A stretch of 63,922 nucleotides of DNA, the filler included, from Ionaspis alba (Eukaryota): NCBI GenBank assembly GCA_964255285.1. It is 3 parts of 3 records of this genome, joined end to end, with 100 filler letters (N's around TTAATTAATTAA, not from the genome) between each part and the next. Parts side by side here need not be neighbours in the genome. Positions count along the whole stretch, not along the records: positions 44,555 to 63,922 come from CAXUUL010000268.1; 2 more parts are not named here. The stretch is one strand, 5' to 3'. The notes under the pieces were generated by a model. It worked only from the letters and a program-made list of their open reading frames with translations. It did no database searches and was not told the DNA's origin. Positions 44,555 through 63,922 of this stretch are shown piece after piece. Position 1 is the stretch's first letter, and every line of letters starts with the position of its first letter. The translations under genes and the position numbers were made by a program.

Positions 44555-44769
44555 AAATATGGGCCCATGACACCTATTGGGAAGAGTGGAGGCGGCTCGG
44601 CCACCTCTACCACGGGTGGAGGGCCTGAATATGGCGGAGGTGGTCCCACAGGTCTGACAAAATAGTTGATTCCCCATGGGTGGAAGGGGAGGCCGGGTTG
44701 TGGGGCTCGACCGCCAAAGGGGACGAGGCCGTCGCTGGTGAAGAAGTGGTGCCTCTCGTTGGGAGGCAT
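44555..44769 (-). CDS. Proline-rich hypothetical protein, N-terminal fragment running into an artificial contig join
   Basis: ATG-initiated ORF MPPNERHHFFTSDGLVPFGG...PPPPYSGPPP open up to the gap; no recognisable domain. Confidence 0.35.
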
Positions 44770-45373
44770 GAATTCTTGTTGTGGAGAGCGTGATGGCGAG
44801 GTTATCTGTGGTATGGTTTGAGGGAAAAGGCACGGTTGAGCGAAAAGAGACGACAGATCAAAGCTACAGAGCAGCTGTTCTTCAAGCCAAGTACAGGAGA
44901 TCTTATGCAGCAGTCTTGGTTTTGAAGTCTGTAGAGTGCCAGAAAGACAGAACCGTGTGGATGGATTGTAGAAAAGAAGGATCGCTGCAACAAGAAAAAG
45001 TGGGCTTTTTATCCCTTCGCAAGTCAGTCACAGCATCCCATTGACTGCCTGAGATGAGTCCTTCAAAAAGCCAATCCCATGGTCGGTGACCAAGATTTCA
45101 GGGAAGACGCAGTACGTGAATGCCATGCCGACCACAAGAACGATCAGGGGAGTAATTGAAAGGGCAAAAACAGCAGTGGTACAGACGGTGAATTGAAAAA
45201 AAATGAGCAGGAACTTTCAACGGGGCCTATCATATCATGAGGAGTTCAGTCATGCAAAACAATCCCACCAGAGCGAATACTCATACAAAATAAAGGGAAT
45301 GAAAATGCGTCATGCCTACCAGGCGAGACCTTCGCACAATGATGCATATTGGGTATCAACTAATCATACAATC

Positions 45374-48300
45374 CTAGCCACCAGTAATGATAGCAAGGCC
45401 CTCATATATTCTGCGCTTGACAGCCTGGAACGAGCCTTCCTGACCTCGATCCATAATTGGTGGTAATCGAAGACCTCCGCCTTCAACCTCAATGTGCCCA
45501 GTGGTCGATTTACGCACAGCCACAAGTTCATCGATGACGAGAGTTCCTTCGCCCCGAAACTCAGCGGCATGGCCAGACGACTGCAAGATTCTGCGCAGAT
45601 CGGCCAGTCGAAGATCTCCAACGTGGAGTGGTTGAGCGACCGAGTGAGTGGTGATGGCCATACTGGAAGGTACGACATCGAGTGTGGGAACCAAGTTCGC
45701 AGTCGGTATGGATGCTACTTGCTCATCTCCTCCTTTGGAAGTCTCGATCTCTTCCTTTAATAACTTCTGCCGCTTTCGCGATAGAGGTTCAATCTGTGTT
45801 GGCTGATTCGGCACTGTGGCAGCTAAGCAGCCAGTGAGAGTCACAACTCCAAGACCCTTGACATTCTGCCAATGCAGTCTTCTTACGAGAGCCTCTCCCA
45901 GCTTGACCGTCCAGGCATTAGTGTCCATGCTCGCGCTGACCGTTTCACCGATCACAGGCGTCAAAATAGCATCCATGGTGCCGGAGTCGGACCCTGTAGT
46001 CGAATTCAACTTGTTTTTACATTCCTCGGCCAACCAATTCGTCTCGGATTGAGTACCTCCTACAAGAACAATCTTACGTGGCTGGATTAGAGGTATCAAC
46101 ATCGATAGACTTCGCTGGTCGTGTAGACCGGCTAGATCCACGTGCGCAATCCGGAGGTTGACTTTTATCGTACTCTCCTTATATGTGAGTTTCGAAGGTC
46201 CGATCGTAGCCTCCTCGACATCTGAATCCGAGTCGGAAGTCGGGAAGTCATCCGAGTCATGATCGTTGGCTTGATTCCTGTTGGTACCATTTAGGGCACC
46301 ATCCATCCCGGTCTTCTGGCGTTTTGTGGCTCCGCCAATAGCTCGATCTTCTTGGCCAGAGCGCAACGAGTCCTCCCATTTCCTCTTCTGACCAAGTCCG
46401 CCGTGCTTGCCACTATTCCCGTCTCGCATATCCTTGCCATCAACCTCGTCTCGCTCTTCCGCTCTGAGGTAATCCTCAGGTCGAATAAGTTCACCGAAGT
46501 CGTCCGCTCGTCTTCTCTTAGTGGCATATGGAAACATGCTTTCGCGGCCTTTCTTGCCTCGAACGTCATAGTCGTAGACTCCTGGTTGTCGGAGCAGAAC
46601 ATTCACTCCAAGGACCTCTTTGTTGCCGCCCGACTTGTTCCGGTTCGCTTGTGCAAGGGTGGCCGATATGTTGAGGGCTTTCCCCTGCCGTTCCGGATCT
46701 GACTCATCGGTCGAAGAAGAGCTGGTAGATGAAGAGTCGTCGATAGCGTCTGCAGAAGTTTCAAGTGCAGTCGCACCACCAGATTGTGCACTTTGAAGTT
46801 GCCGTTCTGAGGCAAGATACTGCTGATAGATTGAGAGTTCTTTACCTTGCAAAGGTGTACGCAGGGCGTCTAGGACTGGTAAATCTCTACCATCGGTATA
46901 GACTTGCTCGAAACTTTGGCCACCAGAGCCTGTCTCTAGAGCAACGCCATCTCTGCGTTCTTGATACCATTGCCACAAAGTCCGACTGATAATCTGAGGT
47001 GTCTCTTCATCATTGGGCTGTGCCGTAAAGTAATTATCCGTCAGAATGACCAGGCTTTGTGGATCTTCAGATATCTGTCGTAATACATCCTTGGAGAAGC
47101 CCCATGCCAGTGATGTGTCGCTGGCTAGTATCACTTTCGGTGACTTCTTCAATAATATTCTCTCAACCTGAGATTTCCGTTCTACCAGCTTCAGCGATTT
47201 GAATTCGAAGGGTCCACCAGAACTTTCGACAACTCTCCCACCTGCTTTTAGCTGTTCCTGTTGATTGCGGGTCTGCTTGCTATCGGTACGTTTGTGTTGT
47301 TTGCTGCTGGAGTTCGCTGCTTCGGCTTCAAACTCTCGTACAATGTTTTCATCCATCCATTCGAGCATACTTCTTGCGTATCTCATTGTCGCGCCCACAT
47401 TTCGGCTCGCCAGGTAGAGTTTGGCATTCTTTAAGGGGCTGTCCTTGGAGGTGCTTGTCTCTCGTTGCCAAGCATGATCGAGAAGATATGCTAATTCGAG
47501 CACTCTAGCGCTTGTATCGGTTGGGATGAGCACTGTCCCTCCTTTGCCCACCGTCTTTCGTATCATGTCGAGTAGTAGCTCATCTCGTCTCTGCCGCCCA
47601 CCACTCAAGCCGGGTTTTTCCACACCTTTCGTGCTGCATATCAATGCTGTTGGCTTCCGTAGCTGCTCAATGACTTCTGCACCACCTGTGCTGGACCGAC
47701 CCAACCAAGCAGCCCCGCTGAAAACGTTCTCCCTTGCATGATTCCAGTCGACTGCGTAGACCACGGATTCCATTCCATGCTGTATGTGCCATATTGTTCC
47801 TCCCAAGGTATGCCCCGCATTGTATGCCGTTATGGTCAATCCATTGAGGGACGGAGAGAATGGTGATGGTAGTGGCTGGTGGGGTTGAGAGTACTTGAGG
47901 GGGTTTATCAGTGAGAAATATGAGGCGATCTCTTCTGAGGTTGGAGGTTGAAGAAGTATCTGTAGACTTTCATCTGAATGCGAAGTCGAATAAGAGAACG
48001 ACGACTCAGATAGAGTGCTCTTAGGTATAACCGTCGATGCTAGCGGCGTGGAGGAATAGATGTCTTGTAGCAGAGTCCGGCCAAGGGAGATGACAGGTGT
48101 TGTCGCGTAGATTGGGATCTGGGTAAAGAGTGGGAAATGTTTGCAGCAGTGGGCAAATGCGGCGATATGGGAAGAGGTCGCATGAGTAAGGAGGATGAGG
48201 GAAAGTGTAGGAATATGCCTGTTGATGTAGGTTAGTCTTTATATCTTCATGAGTTGAGGATGAATAGTACTGTTCCAAGCTCTTCAGCTGCTCGGCATCG

Positions 48301-48416
48301 AAATTGGCGTCCCATCCTACATCCACCAACACCTTGACACCACCTTCAAATTCGAGGAGAGACTGCGAAGCAGGTGAGGTTGACTGCGCCCCTAACAAAG
48401 GGGTGAAGTTGAACAT
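45374..48416 (-). CDS. CFT2: Cleavage and polyadenylation specificity factor subunit 2 (CPSF100), metallo-beta-lactamase/beta-CASP fold
   Basis: MFNFTPLLGAQS..SQSLLE..GGVKVLVDVGWD, LILLTHATSSHIAA, ITAYNAGHTLGGTIWHI, VYAVDWN, LHVGDLRLADLRR..AEFRGEGTL. Confidence 0.96.
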
Positions 48417-48613
48417 TATAGAGGCATTCTGTCACGTTGGAAAATGCATTATGTGCATCTGTTAGGTTTCAAGCATCTTGCCTGTTCTACGGTTCTGATG
48501 CTCTGCAAACCAAGCCCATCGATGCGGTTGCTGACACCGGGAATTGCAGCAAAACTGTCAGTCACGTCGAACAGCTTCACGCATCCTGAAGCAGCCGAGG
48601 GACCGAAACTGTG

Positions 48614-50130
48614 ATGGAANNNNNNNNNNNNNNNNNNNNNNNNNNNNNNNNNNNNNNNNNNNNNNNNNNNNNNNNNNNNNNNNNNNNNNNNNNNNNNNNN
48701 NNNNNNNNNNNNNNNNNNNGGTGAAGGCAGTAAGTCGGTCGTTCATGAAATTCAGAGACTCGGGCTGATTGAGCTACCTTTGTAGCCTACGGTATCGTCT
48801 ATCGTGCACGAGACCGCACCACAAGCAAAACCGTTGCACTGAAGCAAGTCCGACTGTCTGCAGACGAGCGCCAGAACGGTATACCAATTACCGCGCTCCG
48901 AGAGATCTCCATCCTCCGCTCCCTCGATCACGAAAATATTGTCAATGTGCTAGACGTCGCTGTGGGAAGTAATGGTCCGGACGAAATATACATGGTCATG
49001 GAATACGCCGAGCAGGTTGGTTGCCTGAGACTATCCAAAGAAAATAGGCGCATCTAGCTGGCTTATGTTTCCTCTGCCTCTTAGGTAGGGGAATTTGCCG
49101 GTTTTCGTGATGTTCTAGGACATGGCAAATCTTCTGGATGAGTTGAATGTCAAGTTCAGCTTGAGTCAAGGTTGGTCATGGCTATAAAATGGGATTGGCT
49201 ATCGTGCTGATGAAGGTGGTTCAGTCAAATGTCTCTTTCGTCAGGTGCTCGAAGCACTGGAATATCTCCATAAACATGATATCATTCACAGGTGTTATAT
49301 ACCTTGGACCTCAATTCGTATAGGCTGTGCTGAACAGTTTCCCCAGAGACGTCAAGATGCAGAATTTATTGCTTACCGCCAGGGGAGTCGTGAAACTGGG
49401 TAAAACATCTTCGACAATACGTCCACGGTAGGCTGACTCGTTCACAGCGGACTTTGGAATGGCTCGAGAGTATAGCGATCGACCATTGACTCCAGGCGTG
49501 GTAACGATCTGGTATCGCGCTCCAGAACTGCTTCTTGGTACCAAATACTATACACCTGCTGTCGATATATGGTCAGCTGGTCTCATACTGGCTGAGCTCC
49601 TTCTCAGTGCTCCATGTTTGACAGGAGAGACGCCCCTAGAACAACTGTCCCTAATAGTGAAACTACTGGGTTCGCCCACTCCCGAAGACATCGCAGCTTT
49701 GACTGCCATGGGCTGTCCAGAGCTGGTGCGTTGGAGGCGGGAAACATCATCGGGTCGTGTAGACAATCTCGAACGAAGGTTCCATACAGACACTTCTGTA
49801 GAGACGGTGGGCTTCTTAAGAGGCATACTGAAGTGGGATCCAGGAGCAAGGTGGACCGCGGCAGAAGCTTTGGGCCATGCGAAAAGCAAATATGCAAAGG
49901 GTGGCGAGCTGTGGTGGAAGGAGAGCCCGCGAGCAATCGATAAAGAGCTTCTGCCGACCTTTCCAGAAGTGAGGAACGGTGTGGCGGTGGGTATGACGCG
50001 ACGGGACAAGGAAGATCACATTGCAACAACGGGGAACTCCCCGAGTGGTGCTAAAGATCATGGGTACGTCTTTGACTTTGACGGTCCGGAATCAGTGAGG
50101 CGTCCTGCGAAGAGGCATCGCGGTATTTGA
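48614..50130 (+). CDS. Cyclin-dependent protein kinase, CDK10/CDK11-like, multi-exon; start uncertain (gap 48620-48719)
   Basis: Spliced GEG/TYGIVYRARD..VALKQV, GIPITALREISILRSL, IIHR/DVKMQNLL, VKL/ADFGMAR, LTPGVVTIWYRAPELLLG. Confidence 0.9.
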
Positions 50131-50921
50131 GACATTTTATGATAGTATTTCATCTTTGGCAGACACGTGCCCCCAGCGATTCGGTGCTTATGGGATAGCG
50201 AAGCTTTCCAGCTTAAATGATTTCCACAAAGCTGACGGCGCTAACAAACCTGTCATAACACGCGCCATCCATGACCTCTCGATGCTTGGTCTTTACATGC
50301 ATTTGTTCTTGAAACCCCCTGTGTCATCATGCAAACCACCAGACTGCCTTATGCTTCTAGAAAGACTCACCAACCCTGCCGTCTGCACATGTAAGGAACA
50401 GTTGCATGAGATCCTCGCCATCTCCGCACCCTGCAGCATATTCGTACTCGAGCACTCCCTGACAGTAGGACGAACAAGGCTGGAGTTCTTGAATGATAGA
50501 ATTGTTAAGACAATCATTGGTGCCTCTCGAGGATCACAGCAGCTGCGCTACATGATGCGCCAAGAAGAGCACGGAGCTGGACGCGGCGTGGATGATTCAG
50601 CTTCGCGATACTCCGTACCTTACAATTCTACTCCCCCCACATGCTCCATCAGTAGAGGAGTCTTGAAAAAAGAAATCCCTTCAGTCATCGCATGAATCGA
50701 CATGAAAATGATGATCATGACAAAGGTATACCCACAGCCAAGAGAAAAGGAAATATTGAAATTCAAGTCTAGGCGATCTCATGTGGCTCTTGTCTATCTC
50801 CGAGGAAGAGCTTAACCCCAAACGGAGCCTTGGAACCGAGGCGTCAGACCAATTTAGCTACCGCACTTAAGCGCGCCAAGCCAGCAGGGAAGGGAGGTAT
50901 GGCATAGCTCCCAATGAGCCA

Positions 50922-51415
50922 AAAACGTGCCCCCCATCCGCCATTGTGATTGGTCCATTTGCACGACCTGCGAAACTTGCAATTCAACAACATGCAAAAA
51001 GGCTCGAAGTTTTCACAGCCAACCCATCACCCCCAGAACAGCGCCGAAATTGCCACTTAGCATGGCGAATCAGTCCCCTTCGAGTGACCCTCTACCGAAG
51101 GAAAAGCCTTCGCCTGCAAGGACATGCGTCGCTGCACCCCCCGCTGCAGTGAGACTCGTAGCTGACCGACACGCTGGAACCAAAATGTCCTGTATTACCC
51201 CCCTCCCCCCATTGCCACGATGTGACCGTTGCCTCCTCCTGTCCCTCCGACAAAACGAGTCTCCATAGTAGTGACATAGCGAGACGGATGTTGGTGACGA
51301 TCTCGATCATCGATGACACCGAAGACGAATTTGATAGTGGACCGGAGTAGTGTGTACGAAGTAGAAAATCAAATCATTCACGACGGCAAAGCGGACACCG
51401 GCACGAGCACGTTTT
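50922..51415. promoter_or_regulatory. Two Pho4/NUC-1-type bHLH sites (GCACGTTTT) in inverted orientation upstream of PHO84
   Basis: AAAACGTGC at 50922-50930 and GCACGTTTT at 51407-51415; CACGTT is the known lower-affinity Pho4 element. Confidence 0.5.
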
Positions 51416-52169
51416 CCAANNNNNNNNNNNNNNNNNNNNNNNNNNNNNNNNNNNNNNNNNNNNNNNNNNNNNNNNNNNNNNNNNNNNNNNNNNNNNNNNN
51501 NNNNNNNNNNNNNNNNNNNGAAAGGGCATCCGCGAGACATCCATGCCGCACACTGTCTATCAAACGATTGGAGTAGCCGACAAGCTGGTAGGAGAGAATA
51601 GAAAGCTTCCATAGCTTCCTAGCATTGTTACTGTCGAGCACTGGCCGTAAATGCTAACGCGGCTGGGGTGGGGGGTTGTGCACACATGCGCAAGGGATTG
51701 CACACAAAGGGACTGAAGCACGGGGAAACCATGCAGGCAGCCATTGGCTCGAAATGCACCGAGCAACCTCCAGCTCGCAAGCCAGCACGATGGAACCCAG
51801 CAATGGCGAATGACCATCGCCCGGGATTCGATGGTTGGCTTTCCCCCGGTGCTGGGTCGAAGGGTGGGCAGAATCCGTCGTCCTTTTTTCCCTTTCGAGC
51901 CCCGTAGCCGATTCGATCTTGCCTGGATCACTGGACATATGGACGGGCCCGCACTATGAGCCGATAGAGTTGGGACTGGCGTGGGAATCTTGACCCGTCT
52001 ACCCATATATTTCAAAAGCATGCTCCCCATGCACCTTCCCTTCCTCTTCTTCGTCACTCCTGCAAACCTCACTTGCATACACCTACTGAGGTTCCTTTCT
52101 TTCAGTAGCTATTGATTGACCCTTTCGTATTTCGTTTCCTTGTTCTATTGGAATAGTTTGCTCGCCGTC

Positions 52170-54200
52170 ATGGCGATGAAGACGGCTGGAGGCAATTCTG
52201 CCTTTCACAATTTCCACAACGACTACGCTCACATCGCCGATCCGAATGAGCGAAGGAGACTCGCGCTCGCGGAGATCGATAAGGCGCCTTTTGGGTGGTA
52301 CCATGTCCGAGCTGTGGTCGTAGCTGGTATTGGTTTCTTCACCGATGCCTATGATATCTTCGCCATCGGTCTGGTCACCAACATGTTGGGTGTGGTTTAC
52401 TTTCACAATGCCAGCAAGCCCGGAATTATCGATACGAACGCAGATACTGCCATTAAGGTAGGAGAAGCTTCCACTTCGTCAATACACGAAAGGTGAGCTG
52501 ACAGCAAATAGGTCGCTACTTCTGGAGGAACTGTCATCGGTCAAGTGGGGTTCGGTGCTCTCGCAGATGTCGTCGGACGGAAGAAGATGTACGGTCTCGA
52601 GTTGATCCTCATCATCTTCGCAACCCTCGCCCAGGCTTTGACCTCCAACTCTCCATCCATGTCCCTCGTTGGTCTGATCATCTTCTGGCGTGTGCTCATG
52701 GGCATTGGCATTGGAGGAGACTATCCACTTTCTTCGATTATCACCTCTGAATTCGCAACCACCAAGTGGAGAGGTGCCATGATGGTCAGTATCAGAATCG
52801 CCCCGAAGATCCTTTCGATTCCTTCTCTAAAACTCCGCGCTAGGGCTCCGTCTTCGCCATGCAAGGTGTCGGTCAATTCGCCGCCGGTATCTTGGCCTTA
52901 ATCACCGTATCTGGCTTCAAAGACAATCTTTCAACCGCAACCAGCTTCGCAACCTGCGACGGAATCTGCGCCGAGTCCACCGATAAGATGTGGCGTACCA
53001 TCATCGGTTTCGGTGCCGTTCCCGGCTGCATCGCTCTCTACTACCGATTGACCATCCCCGAGACTCCTCGCTACACGTTCGATGTTGCGCGGGATGTCGA
53101 GAAGGCCGGTGAGGATGTCAAGGCCTACATTGCTGGTAAAGCCGAAGGTCACCCCGATCAGATCAGCCGTGCTGCCGCTCAGCAACAGGCTGTCGTTCAG
53201 CTTGAGAGCCCCAAGGCCAGCTGGGGAGATTTCTTCCGCCATTATAGCAAGTGGAGGAATGGAAAGGTTCTTTTGGGAACAGCTGGATCGTGGTTCTTCC
53301 TCGATGTATGTGTGATTTCAACGAATGATCCTATTTTCTACATAATATACTGACTACCATCAAGGTCGCTTTTTACGGTCTCGGTCTCAACAACGCGGTC
53401 ATTCTCACGGCTATCGGATACTCTGGAGGCAAGAATGTGTACCAGATCGTAAGCGACACCCCTTAGGCATTTCTCCCCAAAGCCCTCACTAACGTAAACC
53501 AGTTCTACAATACCGCTGTCGGAAACATCATCATCGTCTGCGCAGGCGCCATCCCAGGCTACTGGGTCACAGTTGCCACCGTCGACACCATCGGCCGCAA
53601 ACCAATCCAGTACATGGGTTTCATCATCCTAACGATCCTCTTCATCATCATCGGCTTCGCCTACGAAAAACTGAGCCCCAACGGTCTCCTCGCTCTCTAC
53701 GTGCTCTCGTTAGTACCACCTTCTCCCCCCCCCCACTCTCTTTCTGCCTCAAACCCAACAAAACTGACCCTCCAAAAAAAAGTCAATTCTTCTTCAACTT
53801 CGGCCCCAACGCCACAACCTTCATCGTGCCTGGCGAATGCTTCCCGACGCGGTACCGCTCGACCTCTCACGGCATCTCCGCCGCATCAGGCAAAGTCGGC
53901 GCCATCGTCGCCCAAGTCCTGATCGGCCCCCTGCGAACCCGCGGCGCGACTGCCTCAAACCCCTCTCCCTGGCTCAACCACGTCATGCAGATTTACGCCC
54001 TGTTCATGTTGCTCGGGATCTTCTTCACCGCGCTAATCCCGGAGACGAAGCGCAAGACGCTGGAGGAGTTGGCCGGTGAGGTCCCGGGTACGGCGATGTA
54101 TGATCCGGTCAGTGCGGGACATAATCGGGAGGCTTATGCGAAAGATGGGACGGGGAGTCCGGGTGGGAGTGGGGAGGTGAGGGGCGATGAGAAGGTTTGA
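52170..54200 (+). CDS. PHO84: High-affinity inorganic phosphate:H+ symporter (MFS), multi-exon
   Basis: AFHNFHNDYAHIADPNERRRLALAEIDKAPFGWYHVRAVVVAGIGFFTDAYDIF; signature GGDYPLSSIITSE; QFFFNFGPNATTFIVPGECFPTRYRST. Confidence 0.97.
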
Positions 54201-54535
54201 ACTGGTACCGGCAGGGGATGGATGGATAGATTGGCAGAGGGTTGGATTGGGTGTATTTAATTGATGGTCTCGGTCCTTCTTTTTTTGTATAGAATGCATA
54301 CGGATTTGTAATACCCCTGGTAATGTTTGTGAATATGATCTGGATCGTTATTATGGTGAACTATGCATTTGGTGCGGAGCTCTTCTACATGGTAGGAGGA
54401 CTTGGAGAAACGGGACAGTTCAAAGCACTACGAGGCATTGCAATTCGACTGGACATGTTCTACATTCTGACAACCACTGATTCCAGATCTACTGGTTGCA
54501 GCCTCTCAAACCTCGACCACATGAGCATACTAACT

Positions 54536-55914
54536 TTAGGCCTTCTTCAGAACAACGTCTGCATACAAAGTCAGAACATACCTTCGAAGGTGGACAGTTA
54601 TACTTACTAGGGTCCTTCAATATCGCTCCAGGCTCGGCAGGCAAGAGAGCTCCTTTCGGTGGCTGGTTCTTGCTCTTAAAGTCATCGCAGATATCTGAAC
54701 GCTAGATCAGCATCGACAACGACTTTACATCTCAGAACGGTTGTGACCCTTACCTTCCATCTTGACCCACTCAACCCCTGGTTTCGTATTCATATACTCA
54801 ATCAACCTACTCATCCATCATCATCATCAGCCCAATCAATCCCACCCGCTCAGGAAACCTCAAAGAAAACCCCACCTCTCCAACATGAACAGCACATGCG
54901 GATGCCCCCCCACATCCGGATGAATGGTCACCGCGAAGCAAAAATCCTCCTCCTCCCGATAAAAGTAATCGAAATGATCGCGCCACAGATCCTCCACATC
55001 GCGGGGATTCACCCAGCCGTGCGAGTTCGGCGCGTTCTTGATGAACATCATCGGCGGCAGGTCGTCGAGATACCAATTCGAGGGGATTTCGACGAGGGCG
55101 CTTTGCGGACCGGGCTGCAAGGGGTGCATCCAGTGAGAGGGGTGTTTGGTGTAGTCGATTGGGGTCCAGGAGTCGCCGATGCGGAGGTAGTAGGGGTGGC
55201 AGTCTTTGTGGGAGAAGGAGTGATCTGGTTGTGTTCAGCGTTTCGAACTTGTAGACAGAGAGGGAGAGAGAAAGAGGTAGGTATGGGTTCGTTTGAGCCA
55301 AACGAACCGTATTCGATGCCGTATTTCAGCATCAGCTCTGCGCCTTCTTTGGACGATTCCCACCAGGGTGCCACGCTGCCTCGAGGCGGTTTGCCGCAGA
55401 AGTCGGTGAGCATTTTCCAGGTCTTGTCGAGGATGGCGTGCTGTTGTTCGATGGTCATTCTTGTGGGGTTTTCGTGGGAGTAGCCGTGCAGACCGCTTGG
55501 TTCGGGCTTCCTTTTAGCGTTTGTAGAGTCGACAGGTTCTGGAGATGACCCTACATTTCATGGCCGGCATCTCGGATCATGGCACATTCTTCTGGGAATG
55601 TCTCGAGCGAGTGCCCTGGGATGTACCAGGTGGTTTTGATGTCGTATTTTGCGAATAGCTTCAGCAGTCTGCGAACTCCAATTGTTCCGGCGTAGAGACC
55701 TGCCAGCATCCATCTAGCCTCTTCCGGTTCGAAATCAGTGGACTTGTATGTACATACCTCGCGAAATATCACTCGTCGAGTCTTCTCCTCCATATGATCC
55801 CAGCCATCCGGCGACGGCGTCGATATCAACAGAAATGCAGCAGAGAGCGCCTATTTCAACTCTTCAGATGGACAGTTGGTTATGGCGATGCTCGTACTTA
55901 CGCTTCTTAGCCAT
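54536..55914 (-). CDS. Polysaccharide deacetylase (CE4, PgdA/PuuE-like), intron-rich
   Basis: MAKKR/..[83 protein letters not shown]; last exon ..VVLKKA*. Confidence 0.92.
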
Positions 55915-56119
55915 GGTCAGTTGAACTGTTCAGACACTCTTGTGTAGGTTCACTATAAGAAGGATGCTTGCTGCCCGCCATTAGTAGTACTCGAAGCTCT
56001 TATCGAGAACCCCGCAAAANNNNNNNNNNNNNNNNNNNNNNNNNNNNNNNNNNNNNNNNNNNNNNNNNNNNNNNNNNNNNNNNNNNNNNNNNNNNNNNNN
56101 NNNNNNNNNNNNNNNNNNN

Positions 56120-57235
56120 ATCTTTGAGCGGGACAGCTCAATCTCCTTCCGCGCGCAAGGGTACAGGCTACGTCTTTCGTCGGCAGGATTGGATGCCATT
56201 GAGTCCGTCCTTGGGCCAGAGGGATTCCAAATATTCTGGAACAAATGTGGCCAGACTGCGAGCAGTGAACTTGCAACTATCGATGCGACAACAGGCTCGA
56301 AGATCCTTGCGACGGGGGATGGAAATCGTGACAAGTCCAGCGATGAGAAACCGACAGAGCGCCTCGCATCCCGCGATGGAAAGGTGGTGGGAATTTCCAG
56401 GGGTGATATGCGCAAAGTCTTCCTGTCTGGATGTGAATCCTTCATCCATTGGTCTCACCATGTCAACAGCTACGAATTGACATCTTCAGGTGTCTATGCA
56501 GTCTTCGCAGACGGCTCGAAGTCAGTCGAAGGGGAAATGCTGGTCGGCGGAGATGGCATATACTCCAAAATCGCGGTACAGCTATCACAAGGAAAGTTGA
56601 AAGTTTACGATACCGGCGCAAGAGGGATACACGGCCAATCGCCCACCACGGCATTTAAAGGCCTCGGGGAAGGTGTGTTCCTATTGAAAGATGACTCCAA
56701 TCCTAATGGAAGAGTCTTCGTTATTACGAACGTCCGGGCAGGTGACATGGATGATCCCAACGTGCAGTTTGGATGGACAATGGGGGCTGAGCCAGGCGTC
56801 ATCAAGGCACCGAATGACAACTATTCACTGATCGGAGCTCCAGCAGCTGAGATAGCGAAGGCATTCACCGCAAATTGGCATCCTCGGCTAAAGCCGCTTT
56901 TCGAAGAGATGGTCGAGCCCGAAGCGGCGTTCTGGAAGATCACTTGCTCCACTCCTACTGGCGTTCCGGAATGGCAGAACGAACCCCGTGTCACTGTCAT
57001 CGGAGACGCCGTGCATTCGATGACACCTGCTGGCGGGATTGGTGCAAACACTGCCGTCAGAGACTCTGCGCTGCTCGGTAGACTACTAGCTAAGTCGGGT
57101 GGGTTTGAAGACGGTGTGACCGCGGCTTATGAGAAAGAAATGAGGGTCTATGCCAGTGAGGCGGTCAAGACGAGTTATGGTTTGGCGAAGGTCCAATTTG
57201 GAATTTCTATCGACGAGAATTCAAGAACGGTCTAA
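56120..57235 (+). CDS. FAD-dependent monooxygenase (aromatic hydroxylase type); N-terminus lost in the gap
   Basis: IFERD..RAQGYRL, LVGGDGIYSKI (DG motif), VTVIGDAVHSMTPAGGIGANTAVRD (GD motif); visible part is intronless. Confidence 0.92.
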   Translation: MFERDSSISFRAQGYRLRLSSAGLDAIESVLGPEGFQIFWNKCGQTASSELATIDATTGSKILATGDGNRDKSSDEKPTERLASRDGKVVGISRGDMRKVFLSGCESFIHWSHHVNSYELTSSGVYAVFADGSKSVEGEMLVGGDGIYSKIAVQLSQGKLKVYDTGARGIHGQSPTTAFKGLGEGVFLLKDDSNPNGRVFVITNVRAGDMDDPNVQFGWTMGAEPGVIKAPNDNYSLIGAPAAEIAKAFTANWHPRLKPLFEEMVEPEAAFWKITCSTPTGVPEWQNEPRVTVIGDAVHSMTPAGGIGANTAVRDSALLGRLLAKSGGFEDGVTAAYEKEMRVYASEAVKTSYGLAKVQFGISIDENSRTV

Positions 57236-58209
57236 AACAAAAATGATTATATTTCAGGGTCTATCAAATCATGGACTTGAATTTGTGCCACATGGGCGTC
57301 ATCTTCTGTTCGAGTCCTGTAATTGCCGCGAACTACGGGCAGATTGAGACTTCAATGGATGTCTGATGTATTCGTCTCTATTGTCAAAAGGATCTCTTGC
57401 AAACCTTGACGTTTGTCACCAATTTGCGGATTATGGACCCCTCAATGGAGTCGAATTAGATGGAGCAATGGGGAAAACAGGCCTGATGCCAATACCCGTA
57501 TAATCGAACTTGAACTTTTTGCTCCCAGTTCCACTAACGGTCGAAAACATAGGCCACCGCTTCTCTAATCTAAGCTAAAGGCGAAGGAGCCTGAACAAAG
57601 TCTAAGTATGTCTATATAAGGAGGGTAGCCATTTCGAGGATCCAATCAGCCCTTAATAATCCCGTTCTTAACCCTATCCCTCGGCTATAGTTTCGATCTA
57701 AATAAATCTCCTATACTGAGAACAGTAGTACACTTCACAGAGAAAACTACTTCACCCCACTGATTGTTTTAACAAGACACACTTGATAACGTACTTAGCT
57801 TTGTCTGCAACGAGGTTATACGTCTTCCTCGGTTCTTCATAATTTAGTCCCTATTCCCCTATGCTTTCGGCCGACGAGTATCACGGTGTTTAGTCATCAC
57901 TCGTGTCTATAAAGTAGATCTCATGACACGAATAGTGACAGATCTACGCTCCTTAAATTAGGGCGAGCACACTTGAGACACGTATAAATAGACGTGAGCA
58001 AGCTTGAGTAACAGGTGAATCGTGTTCTGAGGACGATAACGAGTGAATTGCTAGCATATATCTAGCCACGGCCACCATGATTCTTACCGTGGCATGGTCT
58101 GAGCTGCTGCAAGTTGAACTGGCTGTGACATATTGAAGGAAGTGCTAACTGTCCTTTGTCGGAGATGTTGTGGCGGTGCTTTGCCAAACATGTAAAGCAT
58201 GTGAGAGCC

Positions 58210-59145
58210 TTAAGAAACGAACATCTGTTTGTTCTGTTCCGCCCACTCTTCGAACGTCGTGCCTTTTCTCCCAGAGTACTTCTGGACGTTGGACAGGTGC
58301 TCTTCGTCGACCAGATACCCAACTACCTGATTCGGTCCCTTGACTGGCTTTCCTAATTGCCCAACCATGTATTTCGCAATGGGTGCTGGCGTTCCAAGCT
58401 CCTCGACCCACAGCTTGTAGGCATCCTGCTCGTCAACAGCCTCAATCTTAGGGTTCTTGCCAAGTACTTTTGCAAGAATCTTAATCGTGTCCGCATTCGA
58501 CAACAATTCAGGCCCGTAAAGATAGATGGCCCTCTCTTCATCCTGCGGTCCTTTCGCAAGAACAGTACCACAGACTCGCCCAATGTCCTCGGGAACGATG
58601 CAGTCGACCTTGACATCCGGCTTGTATATCTTCACTTCGCCCTTCTCGAGTCCCGTCTTGTACTGGAGTGTGTTGCTAGAAAATGACCCTGGCCTGGCCG
58701 CCACAAACCCATCTGGTCCAAATACTTCCCGGAGATTGAGCTCGACCTGCGCATGTAGGTACGGTATGATATCACTCGGCGGGATCGCCGCGGGATCATC
58801 TCGAACGGTGAAACTGCTCAAGAAGACCACCAATTCAATACCAGCGGACTTGAGTGCCTCAATGGTAGCCTTCATGCTGTCGGGCGAGCCGAAAGCCAAG
58901 TAGATAAAGGCGTATTTTGCTTTGGTTGTGTTCACGGCATCGCGCACGGTATCCGGCTGGGTGAGGTCGGCTTGTACCCTCTCAAAATTACCCTGCTTTT
59001 CCTTTTCGGCGTCAATGCCTCGGATGGGCTTCGCTGTGTCTCGCATCGCAAGGACCACCTTCGCTCCCAGTTCTTCGGCGGTTCGTGCCGCAGCCGAGCC
59101 AACCGCGCCCGTTGGGCCAAAAATGATAACTTTGCGCGACGCCAT
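58210..59145 (-). CDS. NmrA-like / atypical SDR NAD(P)-binding protein (311 aa, intronless)
   Basis: N-terminal Rossmann motif KVIIFGPTGAVGSAAA; VVFLSS; RPGSFSSN; IVPEDIGRV; YLYGPELLS. Confidence 0.92.
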   Translation of the reverse strand: MASRKVIIFGPTGAVGSAAARTAEELGAKVVLAMRDTAKPIRGIDAEKEKQGNFERVQADLTQPDTVRDAVNTTKAKYAFIYLAFGSPDSMKATIEALKSAGIELVVFLSSFTVRDDPAAIPPSDIIPYLHAQVELNLREVFGPDGFVAARPGSFSSNTLQYKTGLEKGEVKIYKPDVKVDCIVPEDIGRVCGTVLAKGPQDEERAIYLYGPELLSNADTIKILAKVLGKNPKIEAVDEQDAYKLWVEELGTPAPIAKYMVGQLGKPVKGPNQVVGYLVDEEHLSNVQKYSGRKGTTFEEWAEQNKQMFVS

Positions 59146-59974
59146 GTGGAGGTTCGACGTTCGAGAACGGTATCAAAAAATTGGTGATGCTGATAAGCTA
59201 ATTTTGGGATAACAAAGCGAGAGGTTGACAACCGGGCCTCTGCAATAGAGCTAGAAGGTATATATGGGGTTTGCGATTCGGACTTCGGAGCTCTGGTAAG
59301 CGCCGTCAGCCCTTATTTATAAGCATGGGCCTATCTCCGGGGTAGGCCCATCGGAGCATTTGTTCTATAGTCATTTGGCCGTGCAACACCTCTCGGGGAA
59401 AGGGTAGCCTCGTTTCCAACATCGTCTCGAAGGTGGTTCGAGCCTGAACAAACGGACGGCTACGGAACAAACTTATGGAGAATAATTACCTCATTGTTCT
59501 AGCATTCTTCCTTATCTCCACAATGTGACTATTGTCGTAGCCGAGGGACCGTGCATACAGCCACAGCGCCTCATGCTCTTAAGCGAAACCAGTCACTTTC
59601 CCTCTTTCGAGGCGTCATATTCGATGGCACTTCTAACGAATCGGATTCTTTCAATCATCACATTTTCCTCCGACAGTTTGCAAGAGTAGTGAGATAGTAG
59701 GTACTTATCGCTCTCCGCATTTGAGGTCATTCATTGCCGCTCCGTTGCTTCACGTCTCTTCGGTCTCCTAGCTCGATTCATCCAAGGCATCAGCGTCAAT
59801 CCTTCGAACTCGGTGGGCCGAGTCTTTGCACCCCAGAACAGAAAGCGACTGGTACATCGCCCTCATCGACGCAACCTCTGGCTTTCGTTAGCATCATCAG
59901 GCATACCACATCCTGAAGCTCAAAACGTGGAGACAGAACCGCTACTCGTAAAGCACGAGAGGCAGAACTCCACC

Positions 59975-60943
59975 ATGACCCGTCGCATAGTCTACAGCGG
60001 CGCCCTCGTCGCCTTCCTAGCAGGTACGTACCATTTTCTAAGACGCGCCTCAACAAAAGCATTCGTCTGACCCACGACAGCGAGCGCATTGACTCTAGCC
60101 AGCATAATTATCCCGCGCTGGATAAGCTGGGACAGCCAAACAGTACGTCTATCCTTTTTCGCCCCTCCTCTCCCAACAAAATACCCAGTAACCCAAGCTT
60201 ACCGTCCTCCTCTCTTCCTCAACAGCCCAGCGGCTCCCGCATCCACTACACCTACGGCCTACACAAACGTTGCTCCTCCCTGACCCACAGCTGCAGCTAC
60301 TTCCCGCAAGATGAAGACTGTCATAGCGAGGACCGCTACTTCTGCTCCATGTGGCGGTCTGTGGGGTTCCTGATGTCGTTTGCGGTGGTCATCGAGGGCA
60401 TGACACTTATCGCTTTCCTGGTCATGATCGCGGGTGGGAAGCAGAAACGGGAATTTGGTTGGAAGGTGCTGAGTGGGTTGCTGCTGCTGGTGGGCATGAT
60501 ACAGTGTGCGGGGATGTCACTGATTGTGAGTTATTNNNNNNNNNNNNNNNNNNNNNNNNNNNNNNNNNNNNNNNNNNNNNNNNNNNNNNNNNNNNNNNNN
60601 NNNNNNNNNNNNNNNNNNNNNNNNNNNNNNNNNNNCTGCTGCTGGTGGGCATGATACAGTGTGCGGGGATGTCACTGATTGTGAGTTATTTCCTCCCCTC
60701 GGAAATGGAGGGAGAATAAAGGGGAAAGCAAGGGTTTTAAGGGATGAAGGGCTGATGTTGGGGCCACAGGCTTATTTATATGATAACGACGATCGGTTTT
60801 TTCCCGGGTGGAGACTCGATACGTCGTGGATTCTGTGCACGGTTAGCTGGAGTGTGATGGTACTGTTGGCGGCGGGGCTATCAGCGTCGGCGTTTTTGTT
60901 GAGTCCGGAGGGAGGATACGAGTTGATTCCCGATGCGCATTGA
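59975..60943 (+). CDS. Four-TM claudin/Sur7-like membrane protein (4 exons)
   Basis: Spliced MTRRIVYSGALVAFLA/..LTLASIIIPRWISWD../HYTYGLHKRCSSLTHSCSYFP..FCSMWRSVGFLMSF../AYLYDNDDRFFPGWRLDTSWILCTVSW; the internal gap is a duplicated-flank artefact. Confidence 0.82.
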
Positions 60944-61258
60944 AGGGAGGTGTGATCCGATCAAGACGAAATGTTGCTAAGCGTTGATACCCTGGGAGGC
61001 ATCTTGTTATTGCCTTCCAGTGTTGCATTGCTTGCCTTAAGGGGTGGAATTATTTCCAGTGAAATCTGTTCGGTAGATTTTTAGGTCGTAGATTGCTTTT
61101 CGATATCTAATATAACTCTCAACGATTAGAGTTCTCCCAAGGCCACATAATGACCGAATCGCTTGATAGAGTTCAGTCGCATGTAACAATGAATGCATGC
61201 ACGACTTACACAATGTGTAAGAATTATAAGTTGACATAAAAAAGTTTATTCTTGAAAA

Positions 61259-61417
61259 GCAGGCTTGGCCGAGCGGTCTAAGGCGGCAGATTTAAGCCTG
61301 AAGTTTTCTTCTGTGAACTCTGCTATCCGAGAGGATGCGTGAGTGTGAGTAACGATGATACGGAAAATTTTGATATCCATCAACTAATCCTTTCCAAGTC
61401 GAACCTCACAGCCTGCA
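61259..61417 (+). tRNA. tRNA-Leu(UAA) with a canonical anticodon-loop intron (61297-61317) and a second, spliceosomal-type intron in the T loop (61345-61398)
   Basis: Acceptor GCAGGCT/AGCCTGC; D arm GCC-GAGCGGTCTAA-GGC; anticodon stem GCAGA/TCTGC with TAA at 61293-61295; variable arm ATCC-GAGA-GGAT; T stem GTGAG/CTCAC; T loop T|TCGAAC after removal of the 54-nt insert; discriminator A. Confidence 0.93.
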
Positions 61418-61435
61418 AAATATAATTTGGATCTC

Positions 61436-61440
61436 TTTTT
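61436..61440 (+). terminator. Probable RNA polymerase III terminator (T5) of the tRNA-Leu gene
   Basis: TTTTT run starting 19 nt after the discriminator base. Confidence 0.55.
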
Positions 61441-61744
61441 GCCAGCCCACAGATGAATAGAGAAAGATTAACAACATGTGGCGGGATGACCTTTTACTCC
61501 TACTGGTTTGTTGCCGAGGCTGCGTAGCTGTTTCCTTTCGCCTTCGGTCTAATTGGTCATGGGATATGGAGTAGAAGTTTGAAGCGTAGAGTCGTCAGAG
61601 GCAAGAAAAAAAGGACCGCATGTACAGAACGGACGAGACTCGATAAAGTAACCTGTCCTAAGGGAAGGGGAAACCTGTCAAAGGGAAAAGATCCACAGGA
61701 TGAAGCTTAAGTGAACATCGATCTCTATTGCTTCCTCTAGCTAT

Positions 61745-63090
61745 CTATGGTCTTCTATCCTCAATAGACAAATCCTGGCCATCAACATCCTTAACCTCGA
61801 CCTTATCAAACTCAACATCGTCACCTTCCTGCACCTTCTCGACCTCATCCTCCTTCCCCTTTATCCCCTTCAAAACGCCTCCCTTCCGCTTCGGCATAAC
61901 TCTCAAAAACGCCTCTCCCCAGTCTCCCAATTCCAACCACCTCAGCATGATCTCGCACACATGGTTCGTCGCCAGTACATACCGGCTTGTCATCTCCATA
62001 TACTCGCCAATCGGCAATCTCGCTGTTTGCATGCTACGATCCATAGCCCTCTTGTAGCAGATCCCTTTGTGCCGATTGCGATCTACAAGTCCGCCGATGA
62101 TGTACGTGGTGTAGAGTTTGAGTGTCGTCAGGATGTTGGGACTGTCGCTGGTCAAGTAAATGGTTTCGCCTGCTTCGCCAAGGGTGTTGCAGTCGTGTAT
62201 AGGCTTGTCGTCTGTGGAAGTCGTGGCATCCTGCCGCGTTGCGAACGAGCCAGCGAGGCTACCTCCTCCAGAGCCTCGCATCCACTGCTTCGATTGAGAG
62301 GCAGCCTCCACGAAATCTTCGGAGAGGAAATGCACGCCTCTCCACGAGTTGTGGTGGCCTGAGAGCACCTTGTCGAATCGCTCTTTCAGAAGTCCGTCGA
62401 AGGAGCTTACGGCTAGGTGAGCCTTGAACGGTGCTTTGTAGTTATCCGAATAGCAGCGGGTAAGTTGTGCGGCGAGGGACATGCGTTCTTTATCTAGCAT
62501 TAGTTTGTCGAAGCCACAGTCAAGGACGATGGTTATGGGCAATTGAATTGACCGAGTTTGTCGCTTCTTAGGTAATTGATTTGTCCTTTCGATCTCGATA
62601 TCAGGGCTGAAGCCGAGAGACTCTGTTATGCCAGGAATCCCCTCCCGAGCTTCACGCTTCCTCTGCTTCTTCTGCTTTGCCCTCTCTTTCTTTTTTGCTT
62701 TCCAAGCCGCTCGACCCGTTTCCCACTCTTCCTTCCGCTTCAGCTTCTTGAGCTGATTCTTAGACAGCTGAGGTGCTTGACTCGGATCTCCTGGCAGCTC
62801 TGACTCTGCTGTCGCTATTGCTGGAGCAGTAGCCTGGATTTGTTGCGATTTGTGAAGGTCACCGTTCCCCGAACTGGAGCCTTGTAAAAGACCTGACCGT
62901 TGATAGTCATGTCAGACCCATTGGCGCCAATCGTGCTCTGAGGAAGTACTCCACCATCTGTGTCCGGATTTAGGTGCCTATCCTCGTTCTGGTCTCCAGC
63001 CACGATCTTCGTAGCCATCGGTGTTTTATCAATTGAGGCATCGGGAGAAGATATTCTCCTTATCTTTGTAGGCCGCTCCTCAGCTTCCAT
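61745..63090 (-). CDS. TRM10: tRNA (guanine-N1)-methyltransferase, m1G9 (SPOUT)
   Basis: LSKNQLKKLKRKEEWE, IVLDCGFDKLM, QLTRCYS.N, IYLTSDSPNIL, YIIGGLVDRNRHKG, TARLPIGEY, VLATNHVCEIML, AFLRVMPKRK. Start MEAEERPTKIRR requires an intron at about 62893-62954. Confidence 0.93.
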
Positions 63091-63241
63091 CGCGTATGCA
63101 AAAAGTAGAGGTGTATTCAAGTTATTAGCAATTTGCCCATCGGAATATGTCCGTAGGGCTGTTTCGACCGATCTAATCACCAACCCACCATCAAGACTGA
63201 GCTTCACCTGCACACGACGCAGCCGGCCCGCGACAGCGACA

Positions 63242-63843
63242 ATGCCTCAAGACTTGCCGCCAACCGGTGGCTACGAGCCTATACAATACAAAGTACGTCT
63301 CTTTATACCCCAGAGATAATTTAATTGCCCTCGTTCAACAGCTCCCACCTCATCCATCTCAAAGCAGGGCAATTGGCTAACCCATTCCACCAGCGCAATC
63401 TCCCCGCCCGCGGCTTCCGTCCCTCGTACTACCTCCTTGCTGTCGGTTTAATAATGACCTATGGTTTCGTGAAAGTGGGAAAGGGCATTCGGGAACACAA
63501 GTATGGCTTCTCGATCCATTGTCCATCTGGATGGGAAGAAAGACAGAGCTGATGAAGCTCGATCGATAGTGAACTAGCACGAGAAAAGATGTGGGCGCGC
63601 ATTCACCTCATCCCGGTGCTACAAGCGGAAGCGGACCGGGACTTGGTGCGGAGGCATTGGGCGGACTTGGCAAGAGAGAAGGAGTTGATGGGAAAGGAAA
63701 CGAGTGCTTATAATGGGGAACGGTATGTACATGTGCTGGGAACGGAGGTGGACTCGATGTACGGATTGAACACGAGTGCTGACGTGGAGTGTAGGTTTGT
63801 GAGACCGACATTTGCAATATCGCCACAGCACATTACGAAGTAG
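63242..63843 (+). CDS. NDUFA13: NADH:ubiquinone oxidoreductase accessory subunit GRIM-19/B16.6 (4 exons)
   Basis: MPQDLPPTGGYEPIQYK/RNLPARGFRP.../ELAREKMWARIHLIPVLQAEADRDLVRR/FVRPTF. Confidence 0.95.
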
Positions 63844-63922
63844 AAGTTGCCATTGACCTCGGCAATCATGGGTCGATGGCGTTCGAATTGGGTGTACATA
63901 GTTCATACAATGCTTTCACGTT

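Follow-up and report, generated by a model that had tools for sequence, protein, structure and literature searches.

Why should a transfer RNA (tRNA) gene spell the same splice-donor-like hexamer twice in immediate succession? The question is raised by a locus in a 63,922-nucleotide (nt) stretch of DNA, here called the window, which was joined from three parts of the Ionaspis alba genome assembly GCA_964255285.1 and whose positions 44,555 to 63,922 come from CAXUUL010000268.1. In this window (plus strand unless stated otherwise), GTGAGT at 61339-61344 is followed directly by GTGAGT at 61345-61350, forming the 12-mer GTGAGTGTGAGT at 61339-61350 inside a 159-nt nuclear tRNA-Leu(UAA) gene with two introns (61259-61417, delimited by ARAGORN after intron removal). 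Read from the sequence, the doubled hexamer probably represents an exon-intron junction, in which the tRNA's T stem together with T54 is followed by the donor of a 54-nt intron of spliceosomal type in the T loop, and the identity of the two hexamers would not be the leftover of a duplication. Both hexamers can be read directly where an earlier note on this DNA had placed them, and T stem plus T54 is, as that note claimed, a perfect copy of the intron's donor hexamer; its further statement that either GTGAG can pair with CTCAC, at 61405-61409, is likewise confirmed for both copies.

The evidence that an intron begins at the second copy comes from the tRNA itself. When 61345-61398 is taken out, ARAGORN calls a tRNA-Leu(taa) with a 7-base-pair (bp) acceptor stem, a D arm, the T stem GTGAG/CTCAC, and the T loop TTCGAAC, and the product has the long variable arm, the 7-bp acceptor, the 5-bp T stem, and the anticodon TAA of a class II tRNA-Leu. 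From the unspliced gene ARAGORN returns no tRNA, and Rfam gives no tRNA match at either the gathering or the E<=10 threshold. ARAGORN also returns none when the removal starts at the upstream copy (61339-61398), in agreement with the view of the earlier note that use of the upstream donor would destroy the tRNA. The intron so defined, 54 nt between T54 (61344) and T55 (61399), opens with the donor GTGAGT (61345-61350), holds a single CTRAY motif in the branch-site-like ACTAAT (61383-61388, with the putative branch A at 61387, 11 nt from the intron end), and closes on the acceptor AAG (61396-61398), whose AG is the first past the branch motif. Because the cloverleaf fixes the ends of the intron independently, their exact fall on GT and AG is significant. 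In a blind sweep of the window and of three metagenome loci, in which GTNNGT..AG stretches of 35-90 nt were removed singly on both strands, 1533 removals were made and four of them gave a tRNA; these four are the T-loop introns of the window gene and of the three metagenome genes described below, and within the window the sweep yielded no further split tRNA.

In length and signals the T-loop intron appears to resemble the candidate messenger RNA (mRNA) introns of the same window, a noisy set with 31 candidates against 15 in a reversed-sequence control. These candidates are mostly 50-90 nt long, with the donors GTGAGT, GTAAGT, GTATGT, and GTACGT and the branch motifs CTAAT, CTAAC, and CTGAT; GTGAGT is the donor in 5 of the 31, a count to be read against the same control. 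One example, a 51-nt candidate at 35921-35971 on the minus strand, reads GTGAGT..GCTGAT..TAG and joins two abutting open reading frames (ORFs). The exact 12-mer has a single occurrence in the whole window, up to one mismatch to it gives 2 matches where 0.30 are expected (100 shuffles), and GTGAGT by itself shows no enrichment (24 matches, 33.1 expected). Whether the tandem exceeds chance depends on the condition chosen: once an intron sits at T54|T55 behind a GTGAG T stem, the two hexamers are identical as soon as the donor is GTGAGT, a common donor among the window's candidate introns. The repeat amounts to exactly 2 x 6 nt, to which GGATGC upstream and AACGAT downstream add nothing. The two hexamers would be identical since pairing with CTCAC and a G53-T54 ending are required of the exon copy, and a fit to GTRAGT of the intron copy; they are best read as independently constrained sequences that coincide rather than as a duplication scar. 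The sole one-mismatch relative of the 12-mer, GTGGGTGTGAGT at 24388-24399 on the plus strand, lies inside long ORFs and resembles the exon/intron junction form of the metagenome tRNA-Leu genes; the removal sweep yields no tRNA there.

Those metagenome genes were found with a second scan pattern, consisting of a tRNA-Leu D arm, any GTNNGT 35-65 nt on, and AG plus TCRAAYC 32-62 nt further. Six loci matched, and they reduce to three distinct genes, four of the loci (L001, L002, L004, and L005) being identical over the compared region: L001 is a Leu(UAG), L003 a second Leu(UAG), and L006 a Leu(CAG), each interrupted by its intron at T54|T55. Applied to 596 gigabases (Gb) of prokaryote contigs and to viral contigs, this pattern had 0 matches in either set. 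In all three genes GTNNGT stands directly behind T54, a placement that the pattern left free, and removal of the intron gives a full tRNA-Leu whose T-stem and acceptor closure also lay outside the pattern; none of the three gives a tRNA when unspliced or when the upstream GTNNGT serves as donor. The introns measure 56, 55, and 56 nt (54 in the window) in L001, L003, and L006, with the donors GTAAGT, GTAAGT, and GTATGT behind the exon hexamer GTGGGT. Each contains a single CTAAC, again outside the pattern, whose branch A lies 13, 12, and 11 nt before the intron end; they terminate in TAG, CAG, and CAG, where the AG itself was demanded by the pattern. By inspection, the terminal AG is the first past the branch motif in all four introns. 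A run of at least five T follows each of the four genes at 10-21 nt, and no such run lies inside any of them. The window gene's own run, T5 at 61436-61440, is terminator-like for RNA polymerase III (Pol III) and stands 19 nt downstream of the gene, which itself holds two T4 runs, one per intron. Upstream, a TATA-like TTATAA at 61224-61229, 30-35 nt before the tRNA 5' end, is a putative promoter element, and AT-rich or TATA-like stretches also precede the three metagenome genes. The balance tips slightly toward a wider claim, namely that functional tRNA-Leu genes (UAA, UAG, and CAG) with a genuine spliceosomal intron at T54|T55 are maintained in lichen-type and other uncultured fungi; their products would be the first spliceosome-dependent tRNAs. 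Two of the metagenome genes, L003 and L006, lie on contigs of one metagenome and have a common acceptor stem, GGCAAGA/TCTTGTC, with T54|T55 introns of unrelated sequence; one organism may thus hold several intron-bearing Leu isoacceptors, Leu(UAG) and Leu(CAG). The ORFs flanking L001, L003, and L006 gave no clue to the placement of their organisms.

Another answer to the opening question would make the tandem a footprint of how the intron was born. The earlier note had suggested that the intron may have come from the T-stem hexamer being duplicated locally, or from splicing machinery drawn to a donor-like T stem, and the perfect 2 x 6 nt tandem is what such an event might leave. The GT-initial hexamer GTGRGT that stands just before the intron in all four genes points the same way, as does a comparison in which the likeness among the introns (33-39 of 55-56 positions) does not exceed that among their flanks (32-45 of 61-68), so that independent gains at one site are possible. 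In each of the three other genes, however, the exon hexamer and the donor differ, and from this it follows that the perfect tandem is peculiar to the window gene and not conserved. The repeat also stops at six nucleotides, and a 6-nt duplication leaves the other 48 nt of the intron unsupplied. The tandem-duplication model of intron gain, in which an AGGT segment is doubled, requires both exon/intron end repeats, but the intron start GTGAGT is not repeated at the next exon (TCGAAC), nor is the intron end TTCCAAG repeated at the end of the previous one (GTGAGT). As for introners and transposon-type insertion, GTGAGT is not repeated at the 3' end of the intron, the flanks hold no direct repeat of transposon type, and the intron has no second copy in the 64-kb window, where the best other match is 11 nt. 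The likeness among exon ends is largely accounted for by G53 and T54 being universal tRNA letters. The earlier note had itself pointed to introns with other donors, such as GTAAGT, as evidence that would count against its proposal; such introns were found, and they bear on it loosely, as they belong to other Leu isoacceptors in other organisms. The note had also asked whether other intron-bearing tRNAs have donor-like T stems: GTGRGT is shared by four of four genes, and the perfect tandem is missing from the other three. An origin of the intron in the T-stem hexamer is unlikely, and the idea that the tandem records intron birth does not hold up.

If the tandem is a junction, the machinery that acts on it need not be the spliceosome. 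The T-loop insert might be a non-canonical tRNA intron cut by an endonuclease and ligase, as in red algae and nucleomorphs, with its GT..AG ends incidental. Such introns have precedents in the T region, since a T-loop intron at 58/59 is removed in Chondrus crispus (10.1101/2021.12.21.473619) and others are reported for Cyanidioschyzon merolae and Guillardia theta nucleomorphs; in their accessible text these sources tie the non-canonical introns to bulge-helix-bulge (BHB) motifs and an endonuclease or leave them unexplained (PMC4090602; 10.1101/2021.12.21.473619). Introns of this kind are reportedly also the subject of PMC9602550. The resemblance extends to the layout, with a second, T-region intron beside the canonical one, and to the way in which standard finders miss such genes or call them pseudogenes, and the anticodon-loop intron already makes the Ionaspis gene need the tRNA splicing endonuclease (TSEN). 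Against an endonuclease stand the donor hexamer, the branch motif at 11-13 nt from the intron end, and the first-AG acceptor in all four genes, where the branch motif and the position of the donor were outside the search pattern. The intron also lies between 54 and 55 and not at the canonical 37/38, and 54/55 is beyond the reach of the eukaryotic ruler mechanism. The algal introns, moreover, sit at 58/59 or in a stem, whereas the lineage here is fungal and the position 54/55, and in the accessible text none of the former is described as GT-AG with a branch site. A strict BHB motif, defined as a central 4-bp helix with 3-nt bulges at the intron ends, was present in none of the four T-loop introns; the same script found it in none of three canonical introns either, and the test, having no working positive control, excludes only the strict archaeal-type motif. 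Removal by endonuclease and ligase is, on this evidence, quite unlikely, and group I and group II self-splicing introns are excluded by size at 54 nt.

More radically, the gene might no longer work: it could be a tRNA-Leu pseudogene into whose T loop a stretch was inserted by chance, and the tandem would then be without consequence. According to the accessible part of a 2014 review, arm insertions in eukaryotic tRNA genes mostly affect one of many synonymous copies and are presumed to mark pseudogenes (PMC4090602). The genes considered here fit that description poorly: exact removal of the insert restores perfect cloverleaves in four genes of at least three organisms, the splice signals persist in introns that have otherwise diverged, and the terminator-like T runs are kept as well. 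A further point comes from a sequencing run, X1, that contains two variants of the region at depths of 36.3 and 54.2. These differ at 20 positions in 61086-61276, just upstream, but merge into one zero-difference unitig over 61247-61417, introns included, at a depth of 86.9, near their sum, which means that two distinguishable variants share an identical gene. The two variants could be alleles or belong to different nuclei or strains, and the gene could be kept identical by constraint or by gene conversion; X1 may also be the sample behind the window assembly, and it would then show only that a second variant shares the gene. All told, a pseudogene is very unlikely.

With the junction placed, there is the matter of how the correct donor would be told from its copy. 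The earlier note had proposed that tRNA folding masks the upstream donor, and the predicted structures run the other way. In ViennaRNA equilibrium predictions for naked RNA, the intron copy in the window's precursor tRNA (pre-tRNA) pairs with CUCAC (P 0.98-1.00) and the exon copy hardly at all (P about 0). The minimum free energy is -52.6 kcal/mol, compared with -45.0 kcal/mol when the T stem with the exon copy is enforced, a predicted cost of 7.6 kcal/mol. Both hexamers are expected to be mostly paired, the probability of being unpaired amounting to 0.20 for the upstream hexamer and 0.16 for the true donor. In the three relatives the start of the intron is unable to pair with CCCAC, and the true donor is predicted to be more open than the stem hexamer (0.42 vs 0.15, 0.23 vs 0.05, and 0.68 vs 0.18). 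Binding of U1 during transcription could in any case precede synthesis of CUCAC.

The predicted sequestration of the true donor in a helix with CUCAC is one of several points that weigh against a spliceosomal intron at this site. Contigs from two sequencing runs of unknown kind contain no spliced joint over the gene. The acceptor is AAG, the least usual of the YAG/AAG acceptor forms. The normal substrates of the spliceosome are transcripts of RNA polymerase II (Pol II), and in its layout this gene is of the Pol III tRNA kind; U6 and lichen rDNA are recorded exceptions to the Pol II rule. The intron also splits the B box, its 3' junction leaving AGTCGAAC.. instead of GGTTCGAA.., the B-box consensus. 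The comparison genes were returned by a pattern that demanded GTNNGT, AG, and a Leu D arm and are therefore Leu-only and GT-AG by design, and a pattern with free intron ends, directed at strict orthologues, gave 0 metagenome matches. Finally, the exon end reads GTGRGT in four of four genes, which leaves room for some role of a donor-like, GT-initial exon context. On the subject of the B box, the T-loop intron of L003 (669-723), which likewise splits the gene's own B box, contains GAGTTCGAATT at 691-701 on the plus strand, a near-perfect B-box core; the L006 intron has a weaker AATTCGAC, and those of the window gene and L001 have no B-box-like stretch.

If the T-loop intron is nonetheless spliceosomal, a route from gene to tRNA can be proposed. 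Pol III would transcribe the tRNA-Leu gene, U1 might bind either hexamer, and the intron-proximal donor would be used. In mRNAs, tandem 5' splice sites compete for U1, and the intron-proximal one is generally favored when both are occupied. The spliceosome would then remove the T-loop intron as a lariat branched at 61387, and the T arm and the tRNA elbow could form only after that removal; excision of the anticodon-loop intron by TSEN and end processing would probably come later still. Use of the upstream donor would produce a dead-end RNA without a T stem, expected to be degraded, and the decoy donor is probably tolerated for one of two reasons: it loses out to the proximal site, or the cell disposes of RNA spliced from it. 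The situation resembles that of tandem donors in mRNAs in that two equally good hexamers lie a few bases apart, but one of them is here a structural element of the product, so that its use destroys the product and gives no isoform.

The remaining anatomy of the gene is as follows. In the acceptor stem, 61259-61265 pair with 61410-61416, after which comes the discriminator A (61417). Exon 1 (61259-61296) comprises the 5' strand of the acceptor, the D arm with the A-box region, the 5' strand of the anticodon stem, and the loop through G37, including the anticodon TAA that the cloverleaf places at 61293-61295. Exon 2 (61318-61344) comprises C38, the 3' strand of the anticodon stem, the variable arm (61324-61338), GTGAG (61339-61343, T-stem positions 49-53), and T54 (61344), its last six letters being the potential decoy 5' splice site. 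Exon 3 (61399-61417) runs from T55 to C60 (TCGAAC) through CTCAC (61405-61409) to the 3' strand of the acceptor and the discriminator. Between exons 1 and 2 lies the anticodon-loop intron at 37/38, whose extent is ambiguous: ARAGORN takes 12 nt (61297-61308), which leaves a stem closed by G.T and an over-long variable region of 23 nt, whereas inspection favors 21 nt (61297-61317), with a perfect 5-bp stem, GCAGA/TCTGC, and a normal Leu variable arm of 15 nt. With introns disallowed, ARAGORN called 0 genes. A tRNA-Leu(gag) with a 753-nt intron, called by ARAGORN at 59427-60256 on the minus strand when long introns were allowed, was rejected for its mismatched 8-bp acceptor, its 8-nt T loop, and its lack of a long variable arm.

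The window as a whole is eukaryotic, with ORFs that match the CPSF100, NmrA-like, FAD-binding, and tRNA m1G methyltransferase families. At 67-70% identity, the CPSF100-like protein matches proteins named from Trapelia, Xylographa, Lambiella, and Lasallia, which indicates a fungus close to the lichen-forming Lecanoromycetes. The 1176 N in the window show that it derives from a gapped assembly. The neighboring gene, 330 nt from the tRNA gene at 61745-62911 on the minus strand, encodes a tRNA (guanine-1)-methyltransferase domain (PF01746, E 6e-23); that a gene for a tRNA-modifying enzyme stands beside a tRNA-Leu gene is probably coincidence.

How far this arrangement departs from known systems can be judged from introns of similar kind elsewhere. 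Ectopic spliceosomal introns were reportedly described from nuclear ribosomal DNA (rDNA) of lichen-forming ascomycetes by Bhattacharya and colleagues in 2000. Such introns in lichen-fungus rDNA are treated in the accessible text of a more recent study, in which one such intron is spliced out of Pol I transcripts by yeast (Armaleo and Chiou 2021, PMC8527467). They come from the same fungal neighborhood, the Lecanoromycetes, and are likewise short mRNA-type introns in a structural RNA gene that is transcribed without Pol II; the host here, by contrast, is a Pol III-type tRNA gene interrupted in its T loop, whose splicing we infer, and the accessible text of that study does not contain the word tRNA (PMC8527467). 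Spliceosomal introns are also known in the Pol III gene U6 and in U1, U2, U5, and ribosomal RNA (rRNA) genes, according to the portion of one source that is available (PMC5855946). The same portion credits mRNA-type U6 introns in fission yeast and other fungi to Tani and Ohshima (1989, 1991) and to Takahashi et al., and it cites a paper by Frendewey et al. (1990) whose title announces a B-box match within Schizosaccharomyces U6 introns (PMC5855946). U6 thus offers a small Pol III RNA gene interrupted by a spliceosomal intron, and, as far as that title goes, a B-box match inside the intron for which GAGTTCGAATT in L003 is a counterpart. The differences are that U6 is located in the spliceosome's active site, with reverse splicing suggested as the source of its introns, while a tRNA has no such proximity, and that the intron described here splits the B box itself.

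In their accessible text, a large 2023 tRNA review mentions the spliceosome a single time, to set it against tRNA splicing (PMC10275265), the review cited above for T-region introns does not name it (PMC4090602), a further paper handles three intron types as unrelated (PMC12530127), and the Cladonia grayi genome paper mentions tRNA once, in an organelle table (PMC6652019). Across literature full text, a coverage that leaves subscription journals outside, no tRNA gene with a spliceosomal intron turned up. With these tRNA-Leu genes, an ectopic intron of a known kind appears to have a new host.

Textbooks separate tRNA introns, which are removed at 37/38 by endonuclease and ligase, from spliceosomal introns, which belong to Pol II transcripts. 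If the spliceosome does remove the T-loop introns, a Pol III transcript would have to go through it ahead of folding, loss of the ordinary intron, and charging, and the steps of pre-tRNA processing would have to follow an order other than the one known. The supply of these tRNAs would then be tied to splicing capacity, and the reach of the ectopic spliceosomal introns of lichen rDNA would extend to the tRNA pool. Essential Leu tRNA genes would, in these fungi, be missed by standard tRNA finders. For the window gene in particular, output of tRNA-Leu(UAA) would depend on the choice of 5' splice site in a transcript whose T stem is a perfect decoy donor, and two identical donors 6 nt apart, with one option lethal for the product, would constitute a natural test of how the spliceosome chooses.

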